DNA of 64,000 nt from Sneathiellales bacterium (GCA_028277845.1 JANQFL010000075.1:5553-69552), one strand, 5' to 3'; shown: positions 22,179 to 57,360, counted from the stretch's first letter. The notes: generated by a model from the sequence alone, not told the origin. Program-made: numbers and translations.

Positions 22179-23237
22179 ATGCGCCTCAACGCCCACGAAG
22201 CCACCCGCACCTGGTTCAATGCCTTCTTCGCCGGGGAACGGCATTACAAGGCGGCGTTCCTGGAAACCCTGGGGCGCCATCCGCTACCGCTCGGCCTGAT
22301 CGTCGGCAACAATTTCGGCGGTTCCACGTCGGTGTTCGAGGCTCTCTCGCGTTTCCCCAACGTTTTTCCCGTCGTCGCCCGCGAGCACAACAACTTCCAG
22401 TTCGGCCGCGAAAACAGGCTGCTGGAATACAATCTCAACCACCTGTTCTACTTCGCCCACCTGGCGCGGGTCGGCAAGCTGCACGTCACGCCGGAACACT
22501 ACGGCCAGGCCGTCGGCGAGCTGCTCAGCCTGGCCGACACCATGTACCGCACCCACACCGTCTCGTCCTGCGGCCTGTGCCCGTTGCCCGACGCCGGCGA
22601 ACCGGTCGCGGCGGTAGACCAGAGCCTGTGCTTCGAATACGCCGAGGCGCCGCAAATGGTGGAAATCCTCAACCCGGACACCCGGATCATCGTCATCGCC
22701 CGCGATCCCGTCGACCGGGCCTACAGCAATTACCAGCGCGACAAGGTCTACGCCCTCGGCGCCGAAGGCGTGCGCCGCGGCGATCCCTATCCGGCGTTCG
22801 AGGATCTGGTGCCGCTGACCGACCTGATCAATGCGTCGAACCGGGAAGACCTGCTCACGCTGGAACGCACCTCTCACGTGTTCCGCTACATCACCCGCGG
22901 CCTCTACGACCTGCACCTGGCCAACTGGCTCGAGGTTTTCGCCCGCGACCGGGTGCTGTTGATCGACAATGTGGCGCTCAGGCAGGACCCGGAAGGGGAG
23001 ATGCGCCGCGCGCTGGCGTTCCTCGGCCTCAACTGGCCCGAAGGCTACGCCATCGACCTGACATCCGAATACCGTGGCAGCGCCGGGGACTACAACAGGA
23101 TCGATCCCATTTCGCCCGGCGCCGAAGCCGCCCTGCGCCGGTTCTACCGGCCCCACGTGCAACGGTTTGCCGAGTTGGCGGACCAGGACTTCGGTTGGGC
23201 GGCCCATTTCGAGGGGGACCACCGTGCAGCACTTTGA
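22179..23237 (+). CDS. Sulfotransferase family protein
   Basis: PSB-like GNNFGGSTS and IIVIARDPVDRAYSNY (RDPxDRxxS) motifs. ATG 22179 lies 9 nt after the pyk-like stop. Confidence 0.7.
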   Translation: MRLNAHEATRTWFNAFFAGERHYKAAFLETLGRHPLPLGLIVGNNFGGSTSVFEALSRFPNVFPVVAREHNNFQFGRENRLLEYNLNHLFYFAHLARVGKLHVTPEHYGQAVGELLSLADTMYRTHTVSSCGLCPLPDAGEPVAAVDQSLCFEYAEAPQMVEILNPDTRIIVIARDPVDRAYSNYQRDKVYALGAEGVRRGDPYPAFEDLVPLTDLINASNREDLLTLERTSHVFRYITRGLYDLHLANWLEVFARDRVLLIDNVALRQDPEGEMRRALAFLGLNWPEGYAIDLTSEYRGSAGDYNRIDPISPGAEAALRRFYRPHVQRFAELADQDFGWAAHFEGDHRAAL

Positions 23238-24099
23238 TCTGATGCAGACCGTCCGGACCCGCTACGCGGCCAACGGCATCGTCAAGTTGAGCGGACTGTT
23301 CGACGACGACACCCTGTCGGCGCTGTGGCAGGAAATCCAGGATTTCACCGGCGTCCGGTCCGAGGACTATGCAGGCGTCATGGACGGCAGCAGGAAGGCC
23401 TACAACTCGCCGGGCACCGTCATCCGCAACAGGCAGTTCTGGCACCTGCTGGAAAACGACATCATCAACGACACCATCAAGCTGCTCGTCGGCTACGAGG
23501 TCAAGTTCCTCGGCCTGGATTCCATGACCGTGCACTGGTCGTCCCACGGCCTGCACCGGGATTCCCATGTCGGGATGGAACCGTTCACCCAGGGCTTCTC
23601 GCCGGCCGATGCGCCGTACACCGTCACCCGGGCGCTGGTGCATGTCAACGACCCCGACGCCGCGCCCTACGAATTTCAATTCCATCCGGCGTCCCACAAT
23701 ATCGAACTGGGCGAAATGAACGTGCATGGCGTGCCGCTGTTCGACGCATCGCAGATTTGCGCGTCCATGCTGGTCGAGCCGGGCGACTGCCTCATCTTCG
23801 ACGCCCGCCTGCTGCACACCGGCATGCCCATCGTGTCGCCCAAATGCTTCGTCACCATGACCTACGGCCTGCCCAATTTCTACAGCTACGACCATTTCTT
23901 CTATTCCCGCTACGTCCGGGTCGACCAGGGCCTGACCGACATGCCGCCGGAACTGGTCGAGATCCTGCGGGTCAGGAACATGTACCTGGAAGGCTCGACC
24001 GACGAGAGCCTGCGCGAGGAATTCCTCGCCCCCCGCGCCGAAGACATCGGCAAGTTCGATCCCGATCTGTTGTCGCGGGATTATGTGCGGGATATCTAG
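23224..24099 (+). CDS. Phytanoyl-CoA dioxygenase (PhyH)-family Fe(II)/2-oxoglutarate oxygenase
   Basis: GTG 23224 overlaps the sulfotransferase end. HRDSH (HxD) region, a later His, and RLLHTG. Size ~291 aa. Confidence 0.65.
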   Translation: MQHFDLMQTVRTRYAANGIVKLSGLFDDDTLSALWQEIQDFTGVRSEDYAGVMDGSRKAYNSPGTVIRNRQFWHLLENDIINDTIKLLVGYEVKFLGLDSMTVHWSSHGLHRDSHVGMEPFTQGFSPADAPYTVTRALVHVNDPDAAPYEFQFHPASHNIELGEMNVHGVPLFDASQICASMLVEPGDCLIFDARLLHTGMPIVSPKCFVTMTYGLPNFYSYDHFFYSRYVRVDQGLTDMPPELVEILRVRNMYLEGSTDESLREEFLAPRAEDIGKFDPDLLSRDYVRDI

Positions 24100-24108
24100 G
24101 GCGGCGGT

Positions 24109-24168
24109 CTAGACGAGCATCAAACTCAGCTCCGGCACCAGCACGATCAGCACCGGCAGCATGATCGC
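24109..24168 (-). pseudogene. Orphan duplicate of the last ~20 codons of dctM (displaced 3' terminus; att-like left repeat)
   Basis: The minus strand reads ..AIMLPVLIVLVPELSLMLV-TAG, versus the intact dctM end VIMLLVLILIVLVPELSLMLV-TGA at 27601-27666. The nucleotide match has 2 substitutions and one 6-nt indel over ~50 nt. Confidence 0.8.
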
Positions 24169-24502
24169 GGTGTTACTCTGAAGTAGAGGGCACGTTTGTT
24201 CCTTATTTTCGGTCGCGGAATTGCGTTCTGAATATTTGAGTGGCCGCTCTTTCCTTCACAAGCGATTCGTATCAGCTGTCGTTGCGGAAGCACTTGTCGT
24301 TCTAGTGCGCGCGACAGATCAGGTCGGTTACTAACACTAGACCGCAAATACATCGGTGTAATCGCTGGCGTTGTCGCCTTGATGAGTCTGCGAGGCGGGA
24401 CTTAGAGGTGTATGAAGAGTTGAAACTCTCCTCATATTAGAATTGACGATATGAAGTCACTGAAAGGTAGCAATGAATAACTATTTCAGTAAAATATAAC
24501 TG

Positions 24503-24970
24503 TTGTTTGAAAAAACGAAACTGGTGGTCGAATTGCAAATCTTATTAGATATTGGATACTCTGTCGGTTTCGTTGCGGCCTTATTGACTATTTTTAATTT
24601 CTTTCTTCCTATTAACACTGCTAAAGCTCGAGTTTGGCATGCAGCATACATAGTTGTGGTTTGCGTCGTAATTAGTTATTCGACATTTCTGTCAAGCAAA
24701 CAGTCTCGGCTAAACAGTATTGCTATCGCTGCTGATACATTGCTTGCTGAAAGAGATATGGAATATACACACAGAGGTTTTGTATTGGCCGTATTTTCCT
24801 TTTTAGAAAAAAACAAAGATCTCTTTCCTGACAACTATGATCGTGCAGTACAGCTCTGCAATGAGTTTAAGTGCAATAGTCCGCAGATGAGATCAAATGA
24901 TATTGTAACCCTTTCCTCTAGTTTAGCTGGTCTTGTAAGAGGAATAGGAACGCTTAGCAAAACTCAATAA
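24503..24970 (+). CDS. Hypothetical 2-TM membrane protein (islet gene 1)
   Basis: Only long ORF in this stretch. Two hydrophobic helices (ILLDIGYSVGFVAALLTIFNFFL; AAYIVVVCVVISYSTFL) then a soluble tail. No ATG near the 5' end (TTG 24503 or GTG 24524), so the start is uncertain. Confidence 0.45.
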   Translation: MFEKTKLVVELQILLDIGYSVGFVAALLTIFNFFLPINTAKARVWHAAYIVVVCVVISYSTFLSSKQSRLNSIAIAADTLLAERDMEYTHRGFVLAVFSFLEKNKDLFPDNYDRAVQLCNEFKCNSPQMRSNDIVTLSSSLAGLVRGIGTLSKTQ

Positions 24971-25081
24971 AGTGCCTAATTGGAGACTACAAACCTTAAT
25001 TTGGAACTATTGCTGCTGGTGAAGCAGCAATTTTTAATACTAATTCCCGCGAAAGTTTATAGAATCGTTTCCCCTTAAACT

Positions 25082-25909
25082 ATGAACAAAGTTGGGAACA
25101 TGCAGTCTAATAAAACTTGCTTTGTGATTGCCCCAATTGGTGAGCCGGAATCTGAAACCAGAAGGCGTTCTGACCAGGTACTAAAACATGTTATATCGCC
25201 AGCTGTAGAAGAGTGCGGGTATATTGCAGTTAGGGCTGATCAGATTTCTGAGCCCGGAATTATTACTAGTCAAGTTATTCAGCGAATTGTAGATGACCAG
25301 TTAGTTGTGGCGGATTTGACAGAAAGAAATCCGAATGTTTTCTACGAACTAGCCATCCGTCATGCTATTCGGAAACCATTAGTGCAGCTAATCAAAAAAG
25401 GTGAGCAAATTCCGTTCGATGTCGCTGGAACTCGCACCATTTATGTCGATCATCATGATCTTGATAGTGTTGAAGATGCAAAAAAGGAAATTATTTCACA
25501 AGTTCGCGCGCTTGAAAGCGATTCCTCCAATCTTGATACACCCATCTCGGTATCATTAGATCTTCAGCTTTTGAGACAAAGTGAAAACCCAGAACAAAGA
25601 TCGTTGGCCGATTTGCTGTCCGTAATTTCTGAGTTGCGCACTAGTGTAATAAGTATTGAAAAACGTTTGGATCATCCAGAAACAATTCTACCTATCCACA
25701 TCCTGGAAGATCTTATTGAGCGTAGTGAAAGACAATCTGTATGGTCACGAAAGCTGAGCAACGAGATTCGTTTGAGACTCCGCGAACTACTAACAGACAT
25801 GCAACATGACAAACCTAGAGGGGCAGAGGACCGACATAAGCACGAAGTTCGTCTAAAAGAACTTGAAAGAGTTTCTGAAATAATTACGCGTTCAATTTCA
25901 GATTATTAG
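25082..25909 (+). CDS. Nucleoside 2-deoxyribosyltransferase-like / TIR-like Rossmannoid N-domain fused to a coiled-coil C-domain (islet gene 2)
   Basis: CFVIAPIGEP..YIAVRAD..LVVADLTERNPNVFYELAIRHAIRKPLVQLI..IPFDVAGTRTIYV strand-helix pattern. The C-terminal 140 aa are charged and heptad-like. An alternative ATG is at 25100. Confidence 0.65.
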   Translation: MNKVGNMQSNKTCFVIAPIGEPESETRRRSDQVLKHVISPAVEECGYIAVRADQISEPGIITSQVIQRIVDDQLVVADLTERNPNVFYELAIRHAIRKPLVQLIKKGEQIPFDVAGTRTIYVDHHDLDSVEDAKKEIISQVRALESDSSNLDTPISVSLDLQLLRQSENPEQRSLADLLSVISELRTSVISIEKRLDHPETILPIHILEDLIERSERQSVWSRKLSNEIRLRLRELLTDMQHDKPRGAEDRHKHEVRLKELERVSEIITRSISDY

Positions 25910-26271
25910 AAAAGTTAAATATGATTGGATACTGCGAATTGTGCATAAAACATTTGTCGTGTCACAAATTTACTTTTTAGGTAAGAAATTGCTTTCGAAA
26001 GATCCGCTATTTTTAGCGTTACATCAGCGCAACTGTGTTTTCAAAATAGTGGGGTAACGGGTCAAGTCTCGCGTTGTAGCATCTTATAACGCCATTACGT
26101 TCAAGGCTCCCGTTGTCGTCGAATACGACGAACCGCGTCGGGTGACGACTATCACATTGCATGATCCTGGATGCTACAGTTCGAGACCTGACTACTTTTA
26201 CGTATGACCCCTCTTGCGTTCCTTGTGTTCTTGTATTCCTAAAATCAGTGTAAGAACCAAGGTAAAAAAAG

Positions 26272-27132
26272 ATGGCTGTCCCGAAATCAAAAAGTACGAC
26301 AAGTAAGGCGAAACTGGTGTTTGGTGCTGGAGCAGCGACCAGTTTCATTACCTGTATCTTTCTGCTAATCGCGGACAAAACTGCGAGCGCTACAGTCGCC
26401 GCGACATTGACCATAGTGTTATTGCTATTTCTTTACTTCCCTGTCATTGAGAGTTTCGAGTTTTTTGGTTTGAAAGCAAAGCTAAGGCACAGCGTTTTGG
26501 AAATTGAAAACGTGTTGGCCAAGGTCAGGAAGACTGCCGAAGTTTCAGCCAAGCTACTTTACATACAACTCGCTTGGATGAACCGCATGGGTTCAATCAC
26601 CTGGGAGAAGAAACGCGAACTCTTGTCTGATATCGACAGTTTGCTGGACAGTGTCGAAATCAACAAAAATGAGATCGACAATTTGAAGCAACCGTTTCTG
26701 ATTATGATAGCGAGGGACCTTCTTGGCACATGGCAGCATGCCATTAGATTTCGGGTCAACCACAACCACAATCTAGTAATGGATGAGTTGAACAGCCGGT
26801 TTGGGAACGGACCCACTAATCCAACGGATCCAGTGTACTTGGATCTTTCTAATAGGCGGCGCACGTGGAGCTACAAGTCATTTGAAAGCGATGACATACT
26901 TTCAGATACACGCTTTCTAGAATTCGATCAGTTCACAAAAGACCTTATCGCCCCATACCCTTTCTCGAGTCAGGAACTATCAGTTTTTGAAAAAACACGT
27001 ATGGAACTTGTCGCTCTCGAAAGAGACTGCAGGAACAGCGGTACGATCACTAAGGAGGCTGGTGAGTTTCTCGAGAAATACAGTCACCCCCAAGACAAGT
27101 TATACAGAGAGATTTTCGACGGTTTCGACTAG
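26272..27132 (+). CDS. Hypothetical membrane-anchored protein (islet gene 3)
   Basis: Lys-rich N-terminus, two TM helices (FGAGAATSFITCIFLLIA; VAATLTIVLLLFLYFPVI), then a ~210 aa helical soluble domain. No family recognised. Confidence 0.6.
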   Translation: MAVPKSKSTTSKAKLVFGAGAATSFITCIFLLIADKTASATVAATLTIVLLLFLYFPVIESFEFFGLKAKLRHSVLEIENVLAKVRKTAEVSAKLLYIQLAWMNRMGSITWEKKRELLSDIDSLLDSVEINKNEIDNLKQPFLIMIARDLLGTWQHAIRFRVNHNHNLVMDELNSRFGNGPTNPTDPVYLDLSNRRRTWSYKSFESDDILSDTRFLEFDQFTKDLIAPYPFSSQELSVFEKTRMELVALERDCRNSGTITKEAGEFLEKYSHPQDKLYREIFDGFD

Positions 27133-27158
27133 CGGAGTATTTTCTTGCTCGCGTATGT

Positions 27159-27482
27159 TTGGCGCAGCAAATGGGACAAAAACTGGAGAGTAGGTTGGCA
27201 ATTTGGAAATTAACGCCGATCGATGTTGGTCAAAGAAATTGGGGGGCGAGCACGTACAAAGAACAAGTAGTTGTCCGAGCCGCTGACGAACGAGATGCAA
27301 GATTAAGGGCCCAAAGGGCATTTCAAATCGCTACTTATATTGTACCTGGTACGGAAATCGCGCTCTGCCCTTGGCAGTATCCGGATATGGTTCGTGCAGA
27401 GCGATTAGACGAAGGTCAATATGAAGAAGAAGGGCCAAATCAAATTCTCGAGCCTGATTGGGCTGAAAGTGAGATTAAATAG
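27159..27482 (+). CDS. Small hypothetical protein with acidic C-terminus (islet gene 4)
   Basis: ORF 27 nt after gene 3. The likely true start is TTG 27195, preceded by GGAG (ctGGAGagtaggTTG). Ends ..EGQYEEEGPNQILEPDWAESEIK. Confidence 0.45.
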   Translation: MAQQMGQKLESRLAIWKLTPIDVGQRNWGASTYKEQVVVRAADERDARLRAQRAFQIATYIVPGTEIALCPWQYPDMVRAERLDEGQYEEEGPNQILEPDWAESEIK

Positions 27483-27600
27483 TCTGACGCTTTCTAATGG
27501 GCACAACAATTTTTCCGTTGGCCTTTGTGGTCAACAATTGCTTGCCATTTAACGGCGTCGTGAATTGAAAGTGACGGATTGGGCCGCGCATCCCATTCAC

Positions 27601-28926
27601 TCACACCAGCATCAAACTCAACTCCGGCACCAGCACGATCAGGATCAGCACCAGCAGCATGATCACCGCGAACGGGAAGGCGCCGCGGAAGATTTCACCG
27701 AGACTGATTCTGTCGTCGTCCAACGTCGATTTGATCACGTAAACGGCGATACCTAGAGGCGGTGTCAGCAGGCCGATCTCGACGGCGATGATGGTGACGA
27801 TGCCGAACCATACCAGGTCGGCGTTGAAGCCGCCGACGATGGGCAGGATCAGCGGCAGCACGATGAGCAGGATCGAGGTCGAGTCCAGCACCGTGCCCAT
27901 CAAGAGAATCACGATGATGTAGATGGTCAGCAGGGCGGCGAAGCTCAGCTCCGCCGCCTCGATGCCGCCGATGAGGAACTGCGGCAGGCCCGACAGCGCC
28001 AGCATGCGGGTGTAGATGCTGGCGGCGATGATCAGGAACGAAATCGAGACGGTGACGTGGCCGGTCTCCACCAGCACCGACCACAGGCCGCGCCAGGTCA
28101 GCTTGCGCCGGGCCAGGGCCAGCAGCAGCGCCCCCAACGCGCCGACGGCGCCGGCTTCCGTCGGCGTGAAGAAGCCGCCGTAGATGCCGCCCAGCACCAC
28201 GGCGATGAGCAGCACGATGGGCGCCATCTTGGCGGCCATGACCGGCAGGGTCAGGTCGTCGTCTTCCTGATCGCTGCCGGAACCGGATATTGCGTCCGGC
28301 CCGCCGACGAAACCCGGCACCCGGTGGGCCAGGAACACGATGGCCAGGCCGAACGCGGCGGCCAGCAGCAGGCCGGGAATGACGCCGGCGATGAACAGCG
28401 CGCCGACCGAGACCTCGGCCAGGAAGCCGTAGACGATCAACAGCAAACTCGGCGGGATCAGCATGCCCAGCACCGACGACCCGGCCACCACGCCGACCGA
28501 GAAGCGCGGCGTGTAACCCAGCCGGAGCATTTCCGGCACCGCCACCTTGGTGAACACGGCGGCGGAGGCGATGGAGATGCCGGTGATGGCGGCGAACACC
28601 GCGTTGGCCGCCACCGTGGCGATGCCCAGCCCGCCCTTGATGCGGCGGAACAGGTGGTTGGCCACCTGGAAGGTATCGCGGCCGATGTCGGCCTGGCTCA
28701 CCAGCAGCCCCATCAGCACGAACAGCGGCACCACGCCGAAGATATGGCTGGCGATGGAATCGGCGGCGGCCTGGGCCAGCAGCTTGCTGGCGACGATGAC
28801 CTTGCCCTTGATCGCCCAGACGCCGAGGAACGAAAGCAGCGTCAGCGCCACGCCCACATGCATGCCGAGCCAGATCAGCACCAGCATGGCGGCGAGCGAC
28901 GCCAGCCCGATCTCCAGCCCGGTCAT
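27601..28926 (-). CDS. dctM: TRAP transporter large permease subunit
   Basis: 441-aa polytopic protein with typical DctM organisation. Followed on the same strand by dctQ and dctP. Confidence 0.9.
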   Translation of the reverse strand: MTGLEIGLASLAAMLVLIWLGMHVGVALTLLSFLGVWAIKGKVIVASKLLAQAAADSIASHIFGVVPLFVLMGLLVSQADIGRDTFQVANHLFRRIKGGLGIATVAANAVFAAITGISIASAAVFTKVAVPEMLRLGYTPRFSVGVVAGSSVLGMLIPPSLLLIVYGFLAEVSVGALFIAGVIPGLLLAAAFGLAIVFLAHRVPGFVGGPDAISGSGSDQEDDDLTLPVMAAKMAPIVLLIAVVLGGIYGGFFTPTEAGAVGALGALLLALARRKLTWRGLWSVLVETGHVTVSISFLIIAASIYTRMLALSGLPQFLIGGIEAAELSFAALLTIYIIVILLMGTVLDSTSILLIVLPLILPIVGGFNADLVWFGIVTIIAVEIGLLTPPLGIAVYVIKSTLDDDRISLGEIFRGAFPFAVIMLLVLILIVLVPELSLMLV

Positions 28927-29030
28927 GGGATGACCGCCATGATGCCCTCCCGGCGGGGGGCGGGGGGCGCACGGTGAGTGTCCGGAACGGCTGGCCGCTT
29001 TTCAGCCGTTGGCCGCAAGTCCTCAACGCA

Positions 29031-29165
29031 CACTCCGTCGTCATGCCCGCGCTCGACGCGGGTATCCACGTGGCGCCGCTGCACGGACGTCGGGTCGCGG
29101 GCCGCGTTGTCGCCACGGATGGACGTGGGTACCCGGATCAAGTCCGGGCACGACGATGGAGAGGT
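29031..29165. repeat. REP/MITE-like inverted-repeat element, copy 1 (between dctQ and dctM)
   Basis: Left arm cactccgtcgtcatgcccgcgctcgacgcgggtatccacg. The right arm is its imperfect reverse complement (cgtgggtacccggatcaagtccgggcacgacgatgg). Each arm holds its own small hairpin. Related copies lie at 51985-52122 and 57211-57360. Confidence 0.6.
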
Positions 29166-45680: not shown

Positions 45681-45703
45681 CGCCGGTGTCACGGCCACCG
45701 GCG
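45681..45703 (+). terminator. Candidate terminator hairpin after the LivF-like gene
   Basis: Perfect 8-bp GC-rich stem cgccggtg / caccggcg with a 7-nt loop, 18 nt after the stop. No U-tract. Confidence 0.35.
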
Positions 45704-45862
45704 GTACCCGGGGAAGCAGCGGACGGCCGGTGCATCACACACGGACCGGCAGCTGCCACTTTTTCGCGCATGCCGGTTGCCGTCCGGCGTGAAAATGTTA
45801 TCTCTTCCTGCGGGACGAAGGGTCTTTCGTTCCCTCAGTCCGAACAGTCATGGGAACAGAGC

Positions 45863-46003
45863 ATGCGTCGCCTTCCGGCCAATGCGATAGGCGTCTTGTG
45901 GGTTGCGTTGGGCACGGCTCTATTTTCCGTGCTGTTTGCATCGGGCAAATTGTCGGGCGGCGCGGCGGCGGAAGAAGCGAGTGACGACCCGAGTGGAGGA
46001 TGA
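45863..46003 (+). pseudogene. Possible truncated N-terminus of a DMT/EamA-type transporter
   Basis: MRRLPANAIGVLWVALGTALFSVLFASGKLSGG looks like EamA TM1. It then runs into unrelated acidic residues and a stop exactly where composition turns AT-rich. Confidence 0.3.
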
Positions 46004-46085
46004 AAATCTATAACCTTAAATACAGGGGGCGAAACAAACATTTTTCTAATCTAGAGAGCCTCAATAAACGTACAGGGAATTGTAT

Positions 46086-46583
46086 CTAACTTAAAACTAT
46101 GAACTGAAATAAGACGATATAGACAACAGAACCTGAAGCCACCAGTGCAGAAATTTGCTTAGTCCAATAAAAGATCCGTCTTAGTTTGTAGCTAAACCAG
46201 CTTTTTTTATAATGCAGTTTTCCGTCTTCCCGGCTCAGCGCTTTTTCAACTGCAAAAGCGCCACATAGATACTGCAAATAATCTGAGAATATTGCTGTTG
46301 CCCCAGTTAGCCCTGTCAAATAGAGGGCAATACCATGATTAGTTACAATATCTTGAGCGAAAGGTTTGTCAGAAGTTAGTACTGTGTAAAAGATTGCCAA
46401 TACACCGAAGCCTATAAATCTACAGGTTTCCCCAATGCGGCCAGTTACATAGTTTTTCTCTCCGAGACGTATTTGTCTCAGAGCTTCTAGCTTGGCTGAT
46501 TCGTCTCTGGACTCGTCAACTTCCATGCTATCAACGTTGTCCTTTAGCTCGCCCGGCGTCGGGTGCTCTACGTCGTCCGACAA
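46086..46583 (-). CDS. Hypothetical 3-TM membrane protein with acidic N-terminus
   Basis: TTG start preceded by GGAGG at good spacing. 18 nt downstream of the HU-like gene. Helices FIGFGVLAIFYTVL, GIALYLTGLTGATAIF, ISALVASGSVVYIVLFQFIVL. Confidence 0.6.
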   Translation of the reverse strand: MSDDVEHPTPGELKDNVDSMEVDESRDESAKLEALRQIRLGEKNYVTGRIGETCRFIGFGVLAIFYTVLTSDKPFAQDIVTNHGIALYLTGLTGATAIFSDYLQYLCGAFAVEKALSREDGKLHYKKSWFSYKLRRIFYWTKQISALVASGSVVYIVLFQFIVLS

Positions 46584-46601
46584 TTATATACCTCCAAATG
46601 G

Positions 46602-46928
46602 TTAACGTCTTATCCCTGGTCCAGGATCGTCTGTATCATCATCGTCGCCATTTCCACCCTGAACGGCATATTTTAGTACTTTTCCAGCCTTGAATTTTGG
46701 TTGTTTTCCGCCCGGTATGTGGACTATTTGGCCAGTCCGAGGATTTCGACCTTCTTTCGCTACTCTCTGTGTGACAGAAAATGTGCCAAAACCAACCAAC
46801 CGAACTTCTAATCCTTCGCTAAGGGAGTTTCCAATCGTATTGAATATTGTATCGACAGCGGTACGTGCATCGTTCAAAGATAATCCAGCTGTAACTGCCA
46901 CTAATTTGATTAGCTCATTTTTATTCAT
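46602..46928 (-). CDS. HU/IHF-family DNA-binding protein with Asp-rich C-terminal extension
   Basis: MNKNELIKLVA..RLVGFGTFSVTQRVAKEGRNPRTGQIVHIPGGKQPKFKAGKVLK is a canonical HU core, followed by GGNGDDDDTDDPGPGIRR. ATG 46928 has AAGG upstream; an in-frame GTG at 46946 is possible. Confidence 0.8.
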   Translation of the reverse strand: MNKNELIKLVAVTAGLSLNDARTAVDTIFNTIGNSLSEGLEVRLVGFGTFSVTQRVAKEGRNPRTGQIVHIPGGKQPKFKAGKVLKYAVQGGNGDDDDTDDPGPGIRR

Positions 46929-47263
46929 TTGTTGCGCCTTATTCACGTAAAAGTAATCTACGGCTGCCAGAAAATGTACTAATAGTATTATATATGAACC
47001 TGCCGATTGCTACCAATAGCGTTCCTATTTATAAAATTTTGACGTTAGTCGGTGTGATATTGCCAACAAATATAACCTGCTGGCCCCAAATGGCGGTCGA
47101 AGCGGTTGGTAGCGTATTAACAGGAATACCTGAATTCCACTCAGTCCTACCCGAACTTGATCCGTTTATCCACGTTGTCGATGGCAGAGATGACCGTGAT
47201 CGGTCGGAAGTGCAGTACCTCGTGGATCACCGCATCAAGTCCGGTGATGATGAGTTTGGAAAA

Positions 47264-48256
47264 CTAGCGGGAGAGCCGGCTCCCCAGCCAATTCAGCGGC
47301 GTCGCCAGCAGGCCTTGCGGTAGCAGAACCACAGACACCATGAACACGAGGGCGAGGGCGAAGATCCAGTAGTCGCCGAGGAGTTGGCCGAACAGGCTTT
47401 CGATCAGTCGGACGCCGATCGCCGCGAGGAAGGCGGCGAGGACCATTTCCTTGCCGCCCAGCGCCACCCAGATCAGCACTTCGGCCGACAATGCGAAGCC
47501 GATCAGGGTGGGGGAGGCGAATTCGTCGGTGGCGACGAACAGCGCGCCGGAGAGGCCGGCGACGGCGGCGCCGATGGTGAAGGCGCCGAGCCGCACCCAC
47601 AGCACCCGGTAGCCGAAGAAAGCGGCCCGTTCCGGGTTGGTCTTGACCGCCGTCAGCACCACGCCGAAGGGCGAGGCGACGAGGCGTTCGAGGAAGATGT
47701 AGACCAGGAGGCCGACGACGAGCAGCGTGTAGAAGCGCGGAACCGGTTCCCACAACTCGACGCCGCCGAACACGCCTGTGTTGAGGGGCGGCACGCCGGA
47801 CAGGCCGTTGGCGCCGCCGAGACCGTACCAGCTGTTGATGAGCTGTTCGAGGATGTAGGCGATGGCGATCGTGACGATAGCCAAGTACGGCCCGGACAGG
47901 CCCTTGCCCCAAAAGAGGAAGTAGCCGAGAAAGGCGGCGAACAGACCGGCGCCGATGACGGCGATGAGCAGGCCGAGATAGCTCGACATCAGCCAGTCGC
48001 CCAGCATGCCCATGGTGACGGCGGACATGAGGTAACCGCCGAGGCCGAAGAACATGGCCTGGCCCAGACACAGAATGCCGCCGCGGCCCCACACCAGGCT
48101 GAGCGACATAGCGAACACGCCGTAGAGGATGTAGCGGGCGAACTGGTCGGTCCAGTAGTCGCCGGCCAGGGGCACCAGGGCGAGGGCGGCGAACACGGCG
48201 GCGCCGAGCCACACCGGCAGGCGGCCGCTTCTGGCCGTCGTGCTTGATGCGCTCAC
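47264..48256 (-). CDS. HAAT ABC permease (LivM/UrtC-like)
   Basis: GTG 48256 overlaps the upstream stop (GTGA). GGILCLGQAMFFGLGGY motif, hydrophobic. The longer ORF-track N-terminus is in a different gene's territory. Confidence 0.85.
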   Translation of the reverse strand: MSASSTTARSGRLPVWLGAAVFAALALVPLAGDYWTDQFARYILYGVFAMSLSLVWGRGGILCLGQAMFFGLGGYLMSAVTMGMLGDWLMSSYLGLLIAVIGAGLFAAFLGYFLFWGKGLSGPYLAIVTIAIAYILEQLINSWYGLGGANGLSGVPPLNTGVFGGVELWEPVPRFYTLLVVGLLVYIFLERLVASPFGVVLTAVKTNPERAAFFGYRVLWVRLGAFTIGAAVAGLSGALFVATDEFASPTLIGFALSAEVLIWVALGGKEMVLAAFLAAIGVRLIESLFGQLLGDYWIFALALVFMVSVVLLPQGLLATPLNWLGSRLSR

Positions 48257-49107
48257 GACTTGTCCCCCAGGATGCCTTGCGGGCGCAGGCGGATGACCAG
48301 GATGGCCAGGGTGAAGACGGCGATCTGCGCCACCACCGGCGACAGCCAGATGGTGAGGATGCTGTCGGTGCCGCCGACCACGCCGCCGCCGGCCAGCACG
48401 CCGGCCAGCGGACCCGCGCCGCCGACCAGGATGGAGAGGAAGGCGGGGATCAGGTAGCCGAGCCCCATCTGCGGGTCGACACTGATCAGCGGCGCCACTA
48501 GCGCCCCGGCCAGCCCGGCGATGGCGGTGCCGATGACAAAGGTGACCCGGTACATGCGCCGGGTGTCGATACCCAGGCTGGCCGCCGTGTGGGGCCGGGC
48601 GATGACGGCGCGGGCCTGCAGGCCGAAGTCGGAGCGCAGGAAAATGACGAACACCGCGGCGATCACGGCCACCGCGATACCCATCAGCAGCAGCCGGTAG
48701 GCCGGGTAGGCGAAGGCGCCGAAGCTGACCTCCGCCTGGATCGGCGCGATGACGCTGTGGCTGGCCGGGCCGAAGACCAGGATCGCCGCCTGCTTCAGCG
48801 CGATGGAGAGGCCCCAGGTGGCGAGGATGGTGTCCAACGGCCGGTGGTAGATGTGGCGTATCAACGACCATTCAATGACCAGCCCGGCGGCGCCGACCAC
48901 CAGCGGCGCGGCCAGCACGGCGACCCAGAACGGCGCCCCGGCGCCCTCGACGGCGACCACGGTGTAGGCGCCCAGCATGAACAGCTCGCCGTGGGCCATG
49001 TTGATCACGCCCATCATGCCGAACACCACCACCAGCCCCAGCGCCACCAGGATGAGGATCAGGATGTAGGAGAGGCTGTTGAGGCCGATGGCGAAAACTT
49101 CGGTCAC
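48253..49107 (-). CDS. HAAT ABC permease (LivH/UrtB-like)
   Basis: GTG 49107 is preceded by GGGAGA. VVFGMMGVINMAHGELFMLGAY motif. Confidence 0.85.
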   Translation of the reverse strand: MTEVFAIGLNSLSYILILILVALGLVVVFGMMGVINMAHGELFMLGAYTVVAVEGAGAPFWVAVLAAPLVVGAAGLVIEWSLIRHIYHRPLDTILATWGLSIALKQAAILVFGPASHSVIAPIQAEVSFGAFAYPAYRLLLMGIAVAVIAAVFVIFLRSDFGLQARAVIARPHTAASLGIDTRRMYRVTFVIGTAIAGLAGALVAPLISVDPQMGLGYLIPAFLSILVGGAGPLAGVLAGGGVVGGTDSILTIWLSPVVAQIAVFTLAILVIRLRPQGILGDKS

Positions 49108-51941: not shown

Positions 51942-51984
51942 GAGGAGGGTTATGTGGGGCCGCGCCATCAGCGTCCCCGCTCGC

Positions 51985-52122
51985 CTCACACTCCGTCGTC
52001 GTGCCCGGGCCTGTCCCGGGTACCCACGTCCCTCCGTGTCAATGGTTTGGCGGACTGCCCGAGGATTGAGTCGCAGCACGACGTGGATACCCGCGTCAAG
52101 CGCGGGCATGACGGGTGAGGGG
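51985..52122. repeat. REP/MITE-like inverted-repeat element, copy 2
   Basis: Arms ctcacactccgtcgtcgtgcccgggcctgtcccgggtacccacg and cgacgtggatacccgcgtcaagcgcgggcatgacgggtgagggg are imperfect reverse complements. Same family as 29031-29165. Confidence 0.6.
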
Positions 52123-54497: not shown

Positions 54498-55423
54498 GGG
54501 TGTCTCCTGTTTGCCGTGGCCAGTGGACCGGACGGTCAGCCCGCTTGCGTTCGCCGTCTCATGGGGCCGGGACCGGTGGGATCGGACCGGCAAAGAACGC
54601 GGTTGACGGGTTCGGGATGATCTCGATTGGCCCGTTGGGCAAATCCGGCGTGTCGCCGATGGCGAGAAAACCGCCGGATAACAAAGGAAATCGATCGTTT
54701 GCGCCTTTAATCGATAGGCAAGTCGCGTATGAGCAAACAAAGCTGCAAGCAAACAAACGAAAACTGCCCGACATCTGGCGTCCTTCCTGTTTGTTTTCTT
54801 GTCATCGATCTTTGTCACGTTCCATCGAAGCAAGAAATGTTCCAGATTTGTTTTCCGTATATTTTCAATAACTTACCTAAATACTTTTCGGGTGCTATCC
54901 ATCGAATGTAAAGTTTTTCGACAAAAATAACTCTATAATACATCTTATAAGTGCAGTATACTTCTTAAACATTCGAAAAATCGAGTGGTTGATTAAAAAT
55001 TCTGCGTGTATTCTCGGTGTAAACAATACCGACAGTATCCGGGTCCCGGGTTTTGCAAATCGGGTGTTCCAGAGGCGGCAGCTCCATCGCCACGAACACG
55101 TCCATCACCCGCATCCGAAGGCGGCCCGTCGGAGGTGATCGCGCTTCTCGGCACAACATGACCGGTCCGTCACGGCCTCGGCGGCGGAGTATGGGGGTCG
55201 GGCCCGCGTTGGAGGGGCGAGGGGTCATGCCATTTGCCCGCTACCGAAAACTGCGCCTATACTCTTACCCGACCAAACCCGTAGGGATTACCGCGTCCGC
55301 GTTTTGTCACGTGTGTACCGCGTATCCGTAGCTTCCAGGAGACTAGGAGAGAGACTTCGCCGCCGAAACGCGGCGCACCGGCCGTTTAGCCGGCCAACTG
55401 ACCGACCGTCGTGGGGGGCAGGC

Positions 55424-57210: not shown

Positions 57211-57360
57211 CCTCAACTCGTCATGCCAGGAACACACTCTCGTCTTGCCCGGACTTGATCCGGGTATCCACGGCTATCAGCCCAGAATGCATTGAGAACG
57301 TCACCCGCCGGATGCACGGCACCGCGTGGATAGGCGGGTCAAGTCCGTGCATGACGATTT
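57211..57360. repeat. REP/MITE-like inverted-repeat element, copy 3 (more degenerate)
   Basis: cctcaactcgtcatgcc..cgtcttgcccggacttgatccgggtatccacgg and cgcgtggataggcgggtcaagtccgtgcatgacgatt arms. Sits between convergent genes. Confidence 0.5.

Follow-up and report, generated by a model that had tools for sequence, protein, structure and literature searches.

What brings an AT-rich segment to the 3' end of a conserved transporter gene, with the gene end doubled and no recombinase beside it? The question is raised by a locus in 64,000 nt of DNA from a Sneathiellales bacterium (GCA_028277845.1 JANQFL010000075.1:5553-69552; this whole stretch is called the window), in which an islet lies between a PhyH-family dioxygenase gene and dctM, the gene of a TRAP transporter large permease. 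An initial annotation, made from the sequence alone, read the islet as the footprint of a site-specific insertion, with the two copies of the dctM end as attL/attR-like sites. The segment between PhyH and dctM is horizontally acquired foreign DNA. Our analysis tentatively favors, at a chance somewhat below even, a recombinase-free route for its arrival, by homologous anchoring in dctM combined with an illegitimate join.

The islet is foreign DNA between intact host genes

The host flanks and the two copies of the dctM end are the following.

23224 to 24099, plus strand: PhyH-family dioxygenase gene (PF05721, 2.5e-05), the left host flank and the last gene of a sulfation cluster
24109 to 24165, minus strand: displaced dctM 3'-end stub, 18 sense codons plus TAG, encoding IMLPVLIVLVPELSLMLV
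27601 to 27663, minus strand: functional dctM end (the other repeat copy), encoding IMLLVLILIVLVPELSLMLV, TGA stop
27601 to 28926, minus strand: intact dctM, TRAP transporter large permease, 441 aa (PF06808, 1.4e-81), the right host flank

The interior between the two copies, ~3.4 kb long, has a GC content of 43% (37-48% by part), compared with 65% in the left flank and 67% in dctM, and the genome surrounding the islet is at 62-70% GC. Measured against the remainder of the window, the islet has a tetranucleotide distance of 0.77, compared with 0.18 +/- 0.035 for 64 other 3.4-kb windows (z ~17). These composition checks confirm the AT-richness of the interior that the initial annotation had described. 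The cargo consists of four open reading frames (ORFs), all on the plus strand, with a GC content of 38-47% by gene.

A Logan contig from a separate assembly of the same strain (L081, from SRR20820740) contains both repeat copies and spans both junctions, and its islet and flanking proteins are all identical to those of the window. An assembly mis-join is therefore unlikely.

The two dctM ends look like two alleles

The two-copy repeat is genuine. Aligned locally, the two 200-nt regions score 83, well above chance, as the maximum among 486 random window pairs is 32. A 33-nt core, in which one base is degenerate, is present exactly twice in the window and not once in 100 shuffles, and the pair at 24109-24165 and 27601-27663 is the top direct repeat of at least 30 nt across all 64 kb. 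At the positions first given (24118-24165 and 27610-27663), the comparison shows 2 substitutions and one 6-nt indel, exactly as had been claimed. We extended the limits of the copies beyond these positions because homology at the protein level reaches both stop codons; over the full span (24109-24165 versus 27601-27663) there are 6 nucleotide differences and the 6-nt indel, and the perfectly identical blocks are 21 nt and 13 nt long.

It is also evident that both copies encode the DctM C-terminus on the minus strand, each with its own stop codon: the stub ends in TAIMLPVLIVLVPELSLMLV before TAG and the functional copy in AVIMLLVLILIVLVPELSLMLV before TGA. The copy at 27.6 kb is continuous with the intact 441-aa dctM, and the one at 24.1 kb is a stub beside PhyH whose TAG begins at 24109, 9 nt past the PhyH stop (TAG, 24097-24099). 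In the main, the initial annotation holds on these points. The closest DctM proteins (P0122 and P0123, ~91% identical) terminate in IMLLVLVLIVLVPELSLMLV, and compared with all relatives the stub is two codons short and carries a change from L to P. Judged by the C-termini of these relatives, the functional copy is thus normal in length and sequence and the stub is the odd one, with its Pro and its two missing codons.

The differences between the copies are distributed as in coding sequence. Those that alter the protein are CTG/CCG (L/P) and the 6-nt indel, which is in frame and falls at a CTGATC tandem; the others are silent (TTG/CTG, CTG/CTC and GTG/GTC) or exchange the stop (TGA/TAG), so that the stub allele ends in CTC GTC TAG. 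When six random substitutions were simulated on a neutral stub, the stop codon was kept with at most one amino-acid change at P = 0.003-0.006; when the copies were taken as initially identical, with selection on the functional copy alone, P was 0.044. Because both simulations give a low P, two pre-existing dctM alleles are the better reading. These results are suggestive rather than decisive that the event joined two dctM termini, each of which had evolved earlier as coding sequence, and the incoming DNA probably brought its own dctM end. Moreover, the GC content of the two copies (54% and 58%, compared with 43% in the islet) is high, as expected for real dctM ends of high-GC relatives. The Pro and the deletion in the stub are better read as later decay. 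The coding-like differences are compatible with a fragment of a donor gene as much as with an attP mimic.

No recombinase accompanies the islet

The absence of any recombinase inside or beside the islet, also claimed at the outset, holds in the genes tested. Searches of the four islet ORFs against Pfam, NCBIfam, PHROGs and PADLOC gave no domain of an integrase, transposase or excisionase, and we found no recombinase or transposase in the 18 flanking genes tested against Pfam, which cover about 10-14 kb on each side. None of 90 related dctM loci shows an integrase-type insertion with a repeated gene end, and two patterns for a mimic of the dctM-end repeat found no match in the viral contigs of IMG/VR. 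A BLAST search of the islet DNA against plasmid and phage collections was likewise without a match. We rejected a transposon or insertion sequence (IS) as the vehicle: there is no transposase, no inverted repeat pairs the islet ends, and the direct repeat is ~57-63 nt long and imperfect.

The interval seems to be variable among the closest relatives

To find an empty site, in which PhyH and dctM adjoin, we searched related genomes, metagenome loci and JGI gene calls, and no empty PhyH/dctM junction was recovered among them. The nearest genome with DNA available, that of Oceanibacterium hippocampi (DctM 79% identical), has the FAH-TetR-DctPQM order in common with the window and no PhyH downstream; at the best metagenome locus, where DctM is 83% identical, PhyH is not beside dctM. 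The closest relatives (DctM ~91%, PhyH 70-72%) are all in JGI sample 3300042731, where the evidence consists of gene calls on four short contigs (2914, 2452, 2964 and 1666 nt), none of which spans the whole PhyH-dctM interval. One dctM in this sample is followed by an unknown convergent gene 6 nt past its stop and another by a Collar-domain gene, and the PhyH homologs have co-directional genes behind them instead of dctM. As the neighbors of dctM and PhyH differ in these gene calls, the interval seems to carry different cargo in different relatives.

A parallel cassette behind dctM has empty sites and variable joints

To look for analogous events, we searched the 90 related dctM loci for a second downstream copy of the last 66 nt of dctM. 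Such a copy was found in one of them, L051, a metagenome-assembled genome whose DctM is 57% identical to that of the window. At L051:11306-12105, a 750-bp pair of MazE-type antitoxin and PIN toxin genes (vapBC-like) separates the dctM stop from a 29-nt stub; the stub, GACTCTTCTTTTGGTTTTCGTGCCGCAGC, corresponds by homology to codons -16 to -7 of dctM and abuts the stop of a convergent thiamine pyrophosphate (TPP)-enzyme gene. No integrase is present at the L051 cassette locus. Three related loci are empty (L114:2190-2300, L122:5141-5251 and L126:5388-5510), with the dctM stop, a spacer of 9-16 nt and the stop of the TPP gene in succession. In a further genome, the cassette recurs at this position (L116:2521-3390, 94% identical) with no stub beside it.

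Between L051 and L116 the dctM flank is 90-93% identical and the TPP-gene flank 85-90%, and the two occupied loci have synonymous variants of the dctM end in common that are absent from the empty genomes. This points to spread of the cassette among relatives together with its dctM flank by homologous recombination and illegitimate joining, with variable joints on the far side. Such spread fits better than precise att chemistry, because L116 has no stub and the TPP flank is more divergent.

The TIR-like gene travels alone elsewhere

Among the four cargo genes, one encodes a protein similar to TIR enzymes of anti-phage defense.

25100 to 25909, plus strand: TIR / nucleoside 2-deoxyribosyltransferase (NDT)-like protein, 269 aa, with a helical C-terminal half (phrog_3634, PADLOC)

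The protein has 6585 homologs and belongs to a large, widely transferred family; the best 120 of the 6585 are 59-83% identical and have hosts that include Rhodospirillales, Desulfobacteraceae, Dyella and Marinimicrobia. It matches phrog_3634 of PHROGs at 1.3e-51, and its residues 21-149 match a TIR effector model of PADLOC at 7e-11; it has no Pfam family at E<=0.01, and there are weak sequence matches to Rcl/DNPH1. The AlphaFold2 (AF2) model (pLDDT 74.8) predicts a flavodoxin-like N-terminal domain and a helical C-terminal half. In Foldseek, the top PDB matches of the N-terminal domain are TIR-STING, MilB, DNPH1 and NDT (E 5e-5 to 1e-3), with TIR-STING at 5e-5, yet the scores of DNPH1, NDT and MilB are equal. 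Its placement in the TIR family proper is tentative at most, because there is no Pfam match and the DNPH1/NDT fold matches are as good as those to TIR. Its conserved acidic residues E51, D72 and E83 are candidates for a catalytic role. Distant relatives occur in the genomes of temperate Streptococcus and Staphylococcus phages and on plasmids, and IMG/VR holds one distant match. Exact look-up found neither the DctM of the window nor a 275-aa version of the TIR-like ORF on record, and the 269-aa version was found in L081 alone, which is from the same strain.

In other genomes, of 65-67% GC, the TIR-like gene forms a solitary AT-rich insertion of ~1 kb (L082/L083 and L170), with no flanking repeats and no adjacent integrase; the copies in L084 and L169 have IS elements nearby. 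These insertions at L082:7750-8850, at the same place in L083 and at L170:7800-9000 hold homologs ~69% identical to the protein of the window, in islets of 45-47% GC; the one in L082/L083 truncates an AbiEii toxin gene next to AbiEi, and the L170 copy is between the NDUS4 and GST genes. The cases of L082/L083 and L170 suggest that insertion with neither repeats nor integrase is common for this cargo. Furthermore, the TIR-like gene does not co-occur in other loci with any of the three remaining islet ORFs (orfA, orfC and orfD, listed below). Constant flanking repeats or constant orfA, orfC or orfD partners were thereby ruled out, the gene being solitary in L082/L083, L084, L169 and L170, and we dropped a Thoeris-like pairing with the membrane protein orfC, as the two genes do not co-occur elsewhere. 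Because the TIR-like gene stands alone elsewhere and is never found with orfA, orfC or orfD, the islet appears to be pieced together from genes that travel separately, and not to be a coherent element.

The phage and plasmid relatives, the AbiE neighbor in one genome and the wide horizontal transfer make a role of the TIR-like gene in defense or conflict likely. The cargo as a whole would then probably be a small defense or conflict islet, to judge from the TIR/NDT-like gene alone.

How the islet may have arrived

The explanation we lean towards, though we give it less than an even chance, runs as follows. A related high-GC bacterium that already carried the islet behind its dctM would have been the donor; its DNA would have paired with the dctM of the recipient, and homologous recombination would have anchored the incoming DNA there. 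The non-homologous far end would then have joined illegitimately inside the 3' end of the recipient dctM, 57 nt ahead of the recipient stop. As an outcome, dctM would now be terminated by the last ~20 codons of the donor type, and the resident terminus would have been displaced to the far side as a non-functional stub. Such a process would amount to homology-facilitated illegitimate recombination (HFIR), acting where gene content varies as it does in minimal mobile elements. Published work proposes HFIR that displaces the old gene end as the origin of orphan modules in arrays of type VI secretion system (T6SS) effector-immunity genes, of Rhs and of contact-dependent inhibition (CDI) (PMC5361080), and minimal mobile elements are variable cargo between conserved flanks that is swapped by homologous recombination (PMC3787668).

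We infer the donor, the anchoring crossover and the illegitimate joint, and favor them for several reasons: a recombinase is lacking both within the islet and near it, the two dctM ends differ as pre-existing alleles would, the spot seems to vary among the closest relatives, and the TIR-like gene inserts elsewhere with neither repeats nor integrase. The L051 locus, with its empty sites and variable joints, would be an analog. Several points weigh against this reading. Neither a donor nor an empty site nor a recombination tract was found for the lineage of the window itself. Site-specific integration classically leaves what is seen here, a foreign segment bounded exactly by a direct repeat of a gene 3' end, and HFIR usually deletes recipient DNA instead of duplicating it, a join upstream of the end of homology being unusual. 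Moreover, L051, on which the analogy draws, is of a lineage whose DctM is only 57% identical, and the two defects of the stub, which lacks two codons and has a Pro within a transmembrane helix, require change after the insertion here too.

The principal alternative is that of the initial annotation, in which the copies are attL and attR made by a tyrosine or serine recombinase, an attP mimic restored dctM, and the integrase was lost or acts in trans. We regard it as a serious contender, though a less likely one. Elements of this sort, the cis-mobilizable elements (CIMEs), are a recognized class of decayed integrative elements that have kept attL/attR and lost their integrase (PMC5704250). The ~57-63-nt direct repeat brackets the foreign DNA exactly, the stop codon of the gene included, its identical blocks of 21 and 13 nt could house a crossover core, the four cargo ORFs are co-oriented, and coding-like differences are also expected of an attP mimic under selection. 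The foreign DNA at the dctM 3' end, the replacement terminus, the displaced stub and the lack of a recombinase all stand from the proposed insertion footprint, but the reading of the copies as attL/attR sites is not the best-supported one. It is disfavored by the lack of an integrase in the islet or within about 10 kb, of an integrase-bearing element at the 90 dctM ends and of a copy of the dctM-end repeat in the IMG/VR contigs, by the variable junctions of the sole parallel cassette (L051, compared with L116), and by islet DNA that is unmatched in plasmids and phages. The islet would also be an extreme remnant at 3.4 kb that had nevertheless kept both att sites and an intact cargo, and this cargo is a mosaic (GC 38-47% by gene) in which the TIR-like gene travels alone elsewhere.

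It is improbable that the insertion itself made an identical duplication, by fill-in during end-joining of a staggered break or by Campbell-type RecA insertion of a circle, and that the copies diverged afterwards. The L to P change and the 6-nt deletion at the CTGATC tandem of the stub do resemble decay, and the other changes, being silent, could stem from the selected copy; at P = 0.044 the simulation leaves this route some room. However, with three silent changes and a switched stop within 20 codons of the functional copy, we would expect a neutral 57-nt stub to carry far more than one substitution and one indel; the longest perfect match of 21 nt is a poor substrate for RecA, and the cargo ORFs are still intact. 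We give still less credit to the idea that the dctM 3' end, tail-to-tail with its neighbor, is a recurrent docking site for tiny integrase-less cassettes with defense or toxin-antitoxin cargo that replace the terminus and would rely on a dedicated recombinase acting in trans; the islet of the window and the vapBC cassette of L051 would be two members of such a group. Least credible of all is an assembly chimera, in which AT-rich DNA of another organism was mis-joined into the high-GC contig at a short common sequence. The source is apparently a metagenome or draft assembly and the jump in composition is extreme, but the second assembly spans both junctions with both copies and identical proteins, the longest exact repeat of 21 nt is below the usual assembly k-mers, a mis-join does not explain the sequence variant of the stub itself, and the same genome has a second small AT-rich islet. 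The remaining probability lies with mechanisms beyond the readings listed here.

Remaining cargo, flanking genes and other features of the window

The rest of the islet, apart from the TIR-like gene, consists of the following features.

24166 to 24502, no strand: non-coding left islet end, 46% GC
24503 to 24970, plus strand: orfA, 155 aa, hydrophobic N-terminus, 38% GC, orphan (ORF call)
26045 to 26205, no strand: long, imperfect inverted repeat; the TIR-like gene and orfC on its two sides are 362 nt apart (fold)
26272 to 27132, plus strand: orfC, 286 aa, all-helical domain preceded by two hydrophobic helices at the N-terminus, small family with no annotation
27159 to 27482, plus strand: orfD, 107 aa, orphan ORF of uncertain reality (ORF call)
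27483 to 27600, no strand: non-coding right islet end, bordering the dctM stop codon

The left islet end at 24166-24502 has no family match and no significant structure, and an Rfam scan of the islet found no match. Promoter and terminator scans of the islet were at chance level, save for a terminator-like hairpin behind orfA (25009-25031). Searches with orfA found nothing in Pfam, NCBIfam or PADLOC and a marginal match at 0.073 in PHROGs, and those with orfD found nothing in any of these four collections; neither ORF is called as a gene in L081. The orfA, orfC and orfD proteins have no match among plasmids.

The family of orfC, about 280 aa in length, has 290 cluster representatives at E<=1e-3, and the 30 members tested have no Pfam match. 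Its AF2 model (pLDDT 90.9) predicts a membrane-anchored protein with an all-helical body, and no PDB fold match is found below E 0.4 (best 0.44).

The inverted repeat at 26045-26205 has arms at 26061-26083 and 26170-26192, and its DNA folds at -27.1 kcal/mol (z = -3.0), as good a fold being reached in 0 of 200 shuffles; it has no match in Rfam. It may be the joint of two separately acquired modules. An integron cassette array (a cluster of attC sites lacking an integron integrase, CALIN) was considered and dropped, since this is the sole long palindrome and, read by eye, has no R''/R' boxes; no IntI was found in the region of the window tested.

On the left, the PhyH match to PF05721 exceeds the curated cut-off and the gene has a GC content at third codon positions (GC3) of 0.85. 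Upstream of it are genes for a sulfotransferase, pyruvate kinase, ATP sulfurylase and APS kinase, and the left flank also has a sulfatase and a glycosyltransferase. On the right, DctM covers profile positions 1-413 of the 413 of PF06808, and its relatives are 79-91% identical. The DctP and DctQ genes are upstream of dctM, and the TetR/FAH synteny is kept in Oceanibacterium hippocampi; the right-flank genes tested encode DctM, TetR, an FAA hydrolase, a cyclase and a molybdopterin dehydrogenase. An intergenic repeat family of ~57 nt (copies 65-77% identical) is present at 29022-29078, 51980-52036 and 57224-57280. One of its copies lies in an unusual 286-nt gap between the dctQ stop (29213) and the dctM start (28926); in a close relative, the gene calls of dctQ and dctM overlap by 4 nt.

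Two other AT-rich patches are present in the window, at 46.0-47.2 kb and 54.7-55.15 kb, and neither has a duplicated gene end or flanking repeats. The second AT-rich islet of the window, at 46000-47200 (37-48% GC), contains an HU-family protein gene (46602-46946, minus strand; PF00216, 6e-28) and an uncharacterized 165-aa ORF (46086-46583, minus strand), and is bordered on one side by a short ORF (45686-46003) and on the other by a minus-strand gene for a branched-chain amino-acid permease (47264-48871), whose 3' end faces the islet. The short patch at 54700-55150 (about 37-44% GC) is apparently non-coding and lies upstream of a 634-aa gene starting at 55304.

Relation to known systems and significance

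The islet belongs to a known and fairly ordinary type, that of small genomic islets that lack an integrase and have displaced a gene end. Like CIMEs, it is foreign DNA at the 3' end of a protein gene, flanked by direct repeats that contain the gene end, with a replacement terminus and no integrase. It differs from them in that no cognate integrase, integrase-bearing sibling or excision product is known for it, that it is very small, that its cargo looks like a mosaic, and that its repeats are ~90% identical with an indel. Staphylococci offer a comparable example in the recombinase-less pseudo-SCC (staphylococcal cassette chromosome) elements, which occupy the 3' end of rlmH/orfX.

In the HFIR model proposed for such arrays, incoming DNA likewise anchors in a conserved gene, which receives a new 3' end together with cargo as the old 3' part becomes a downstream orphan that has sequence in common with the main gene, and no recombinase is needed, as in the reading favored here (PMC5361080). 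Unlike in those arrays, the gene at this locus is a housekeeping-type TRAP permease and not a polymorphic toxin gene, the same protein end is encoded, and there has been one displacement. With minimal mobile elements the islet has in common a cargo that seems to vary among close relatives between conserved genes, the absence of mobility genes and an expected exchange through flank homology; the classic ones leave no duplicated gene end, however, and the variability of the locus is deduced from the gene calls of four contigs. The TIR-like gene can be compared with TIR defense islets (Thoeris ThsB and TIR-STING) for its PADLOC TIR-effector match, its predicted TIR/NDT-like fold and its phage and AbiE-adjacent homologs; in contrast to these, it has no Pfam TIR match and no ThsA, STING or SIR2 partner, and it is solitary elsewhere.

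The cargo adds two uncharacterized families, a widespread TIR/NDT-like protein and, in orfC, a helical protein whose confident model predicts a membrane anchor and has no structural counterpart in the PDB. The islet shows a high-GC alphaproteobacterium gaining a few AT-rich, probably conflict-related genes, with no visible mobility gene and with its transporter left intact. If the recombinase-free route is true, a duplicated gene terminus around an islet would be no proof of an att site, and tools for finding genomic islands that depend on it would mislabel such loci.

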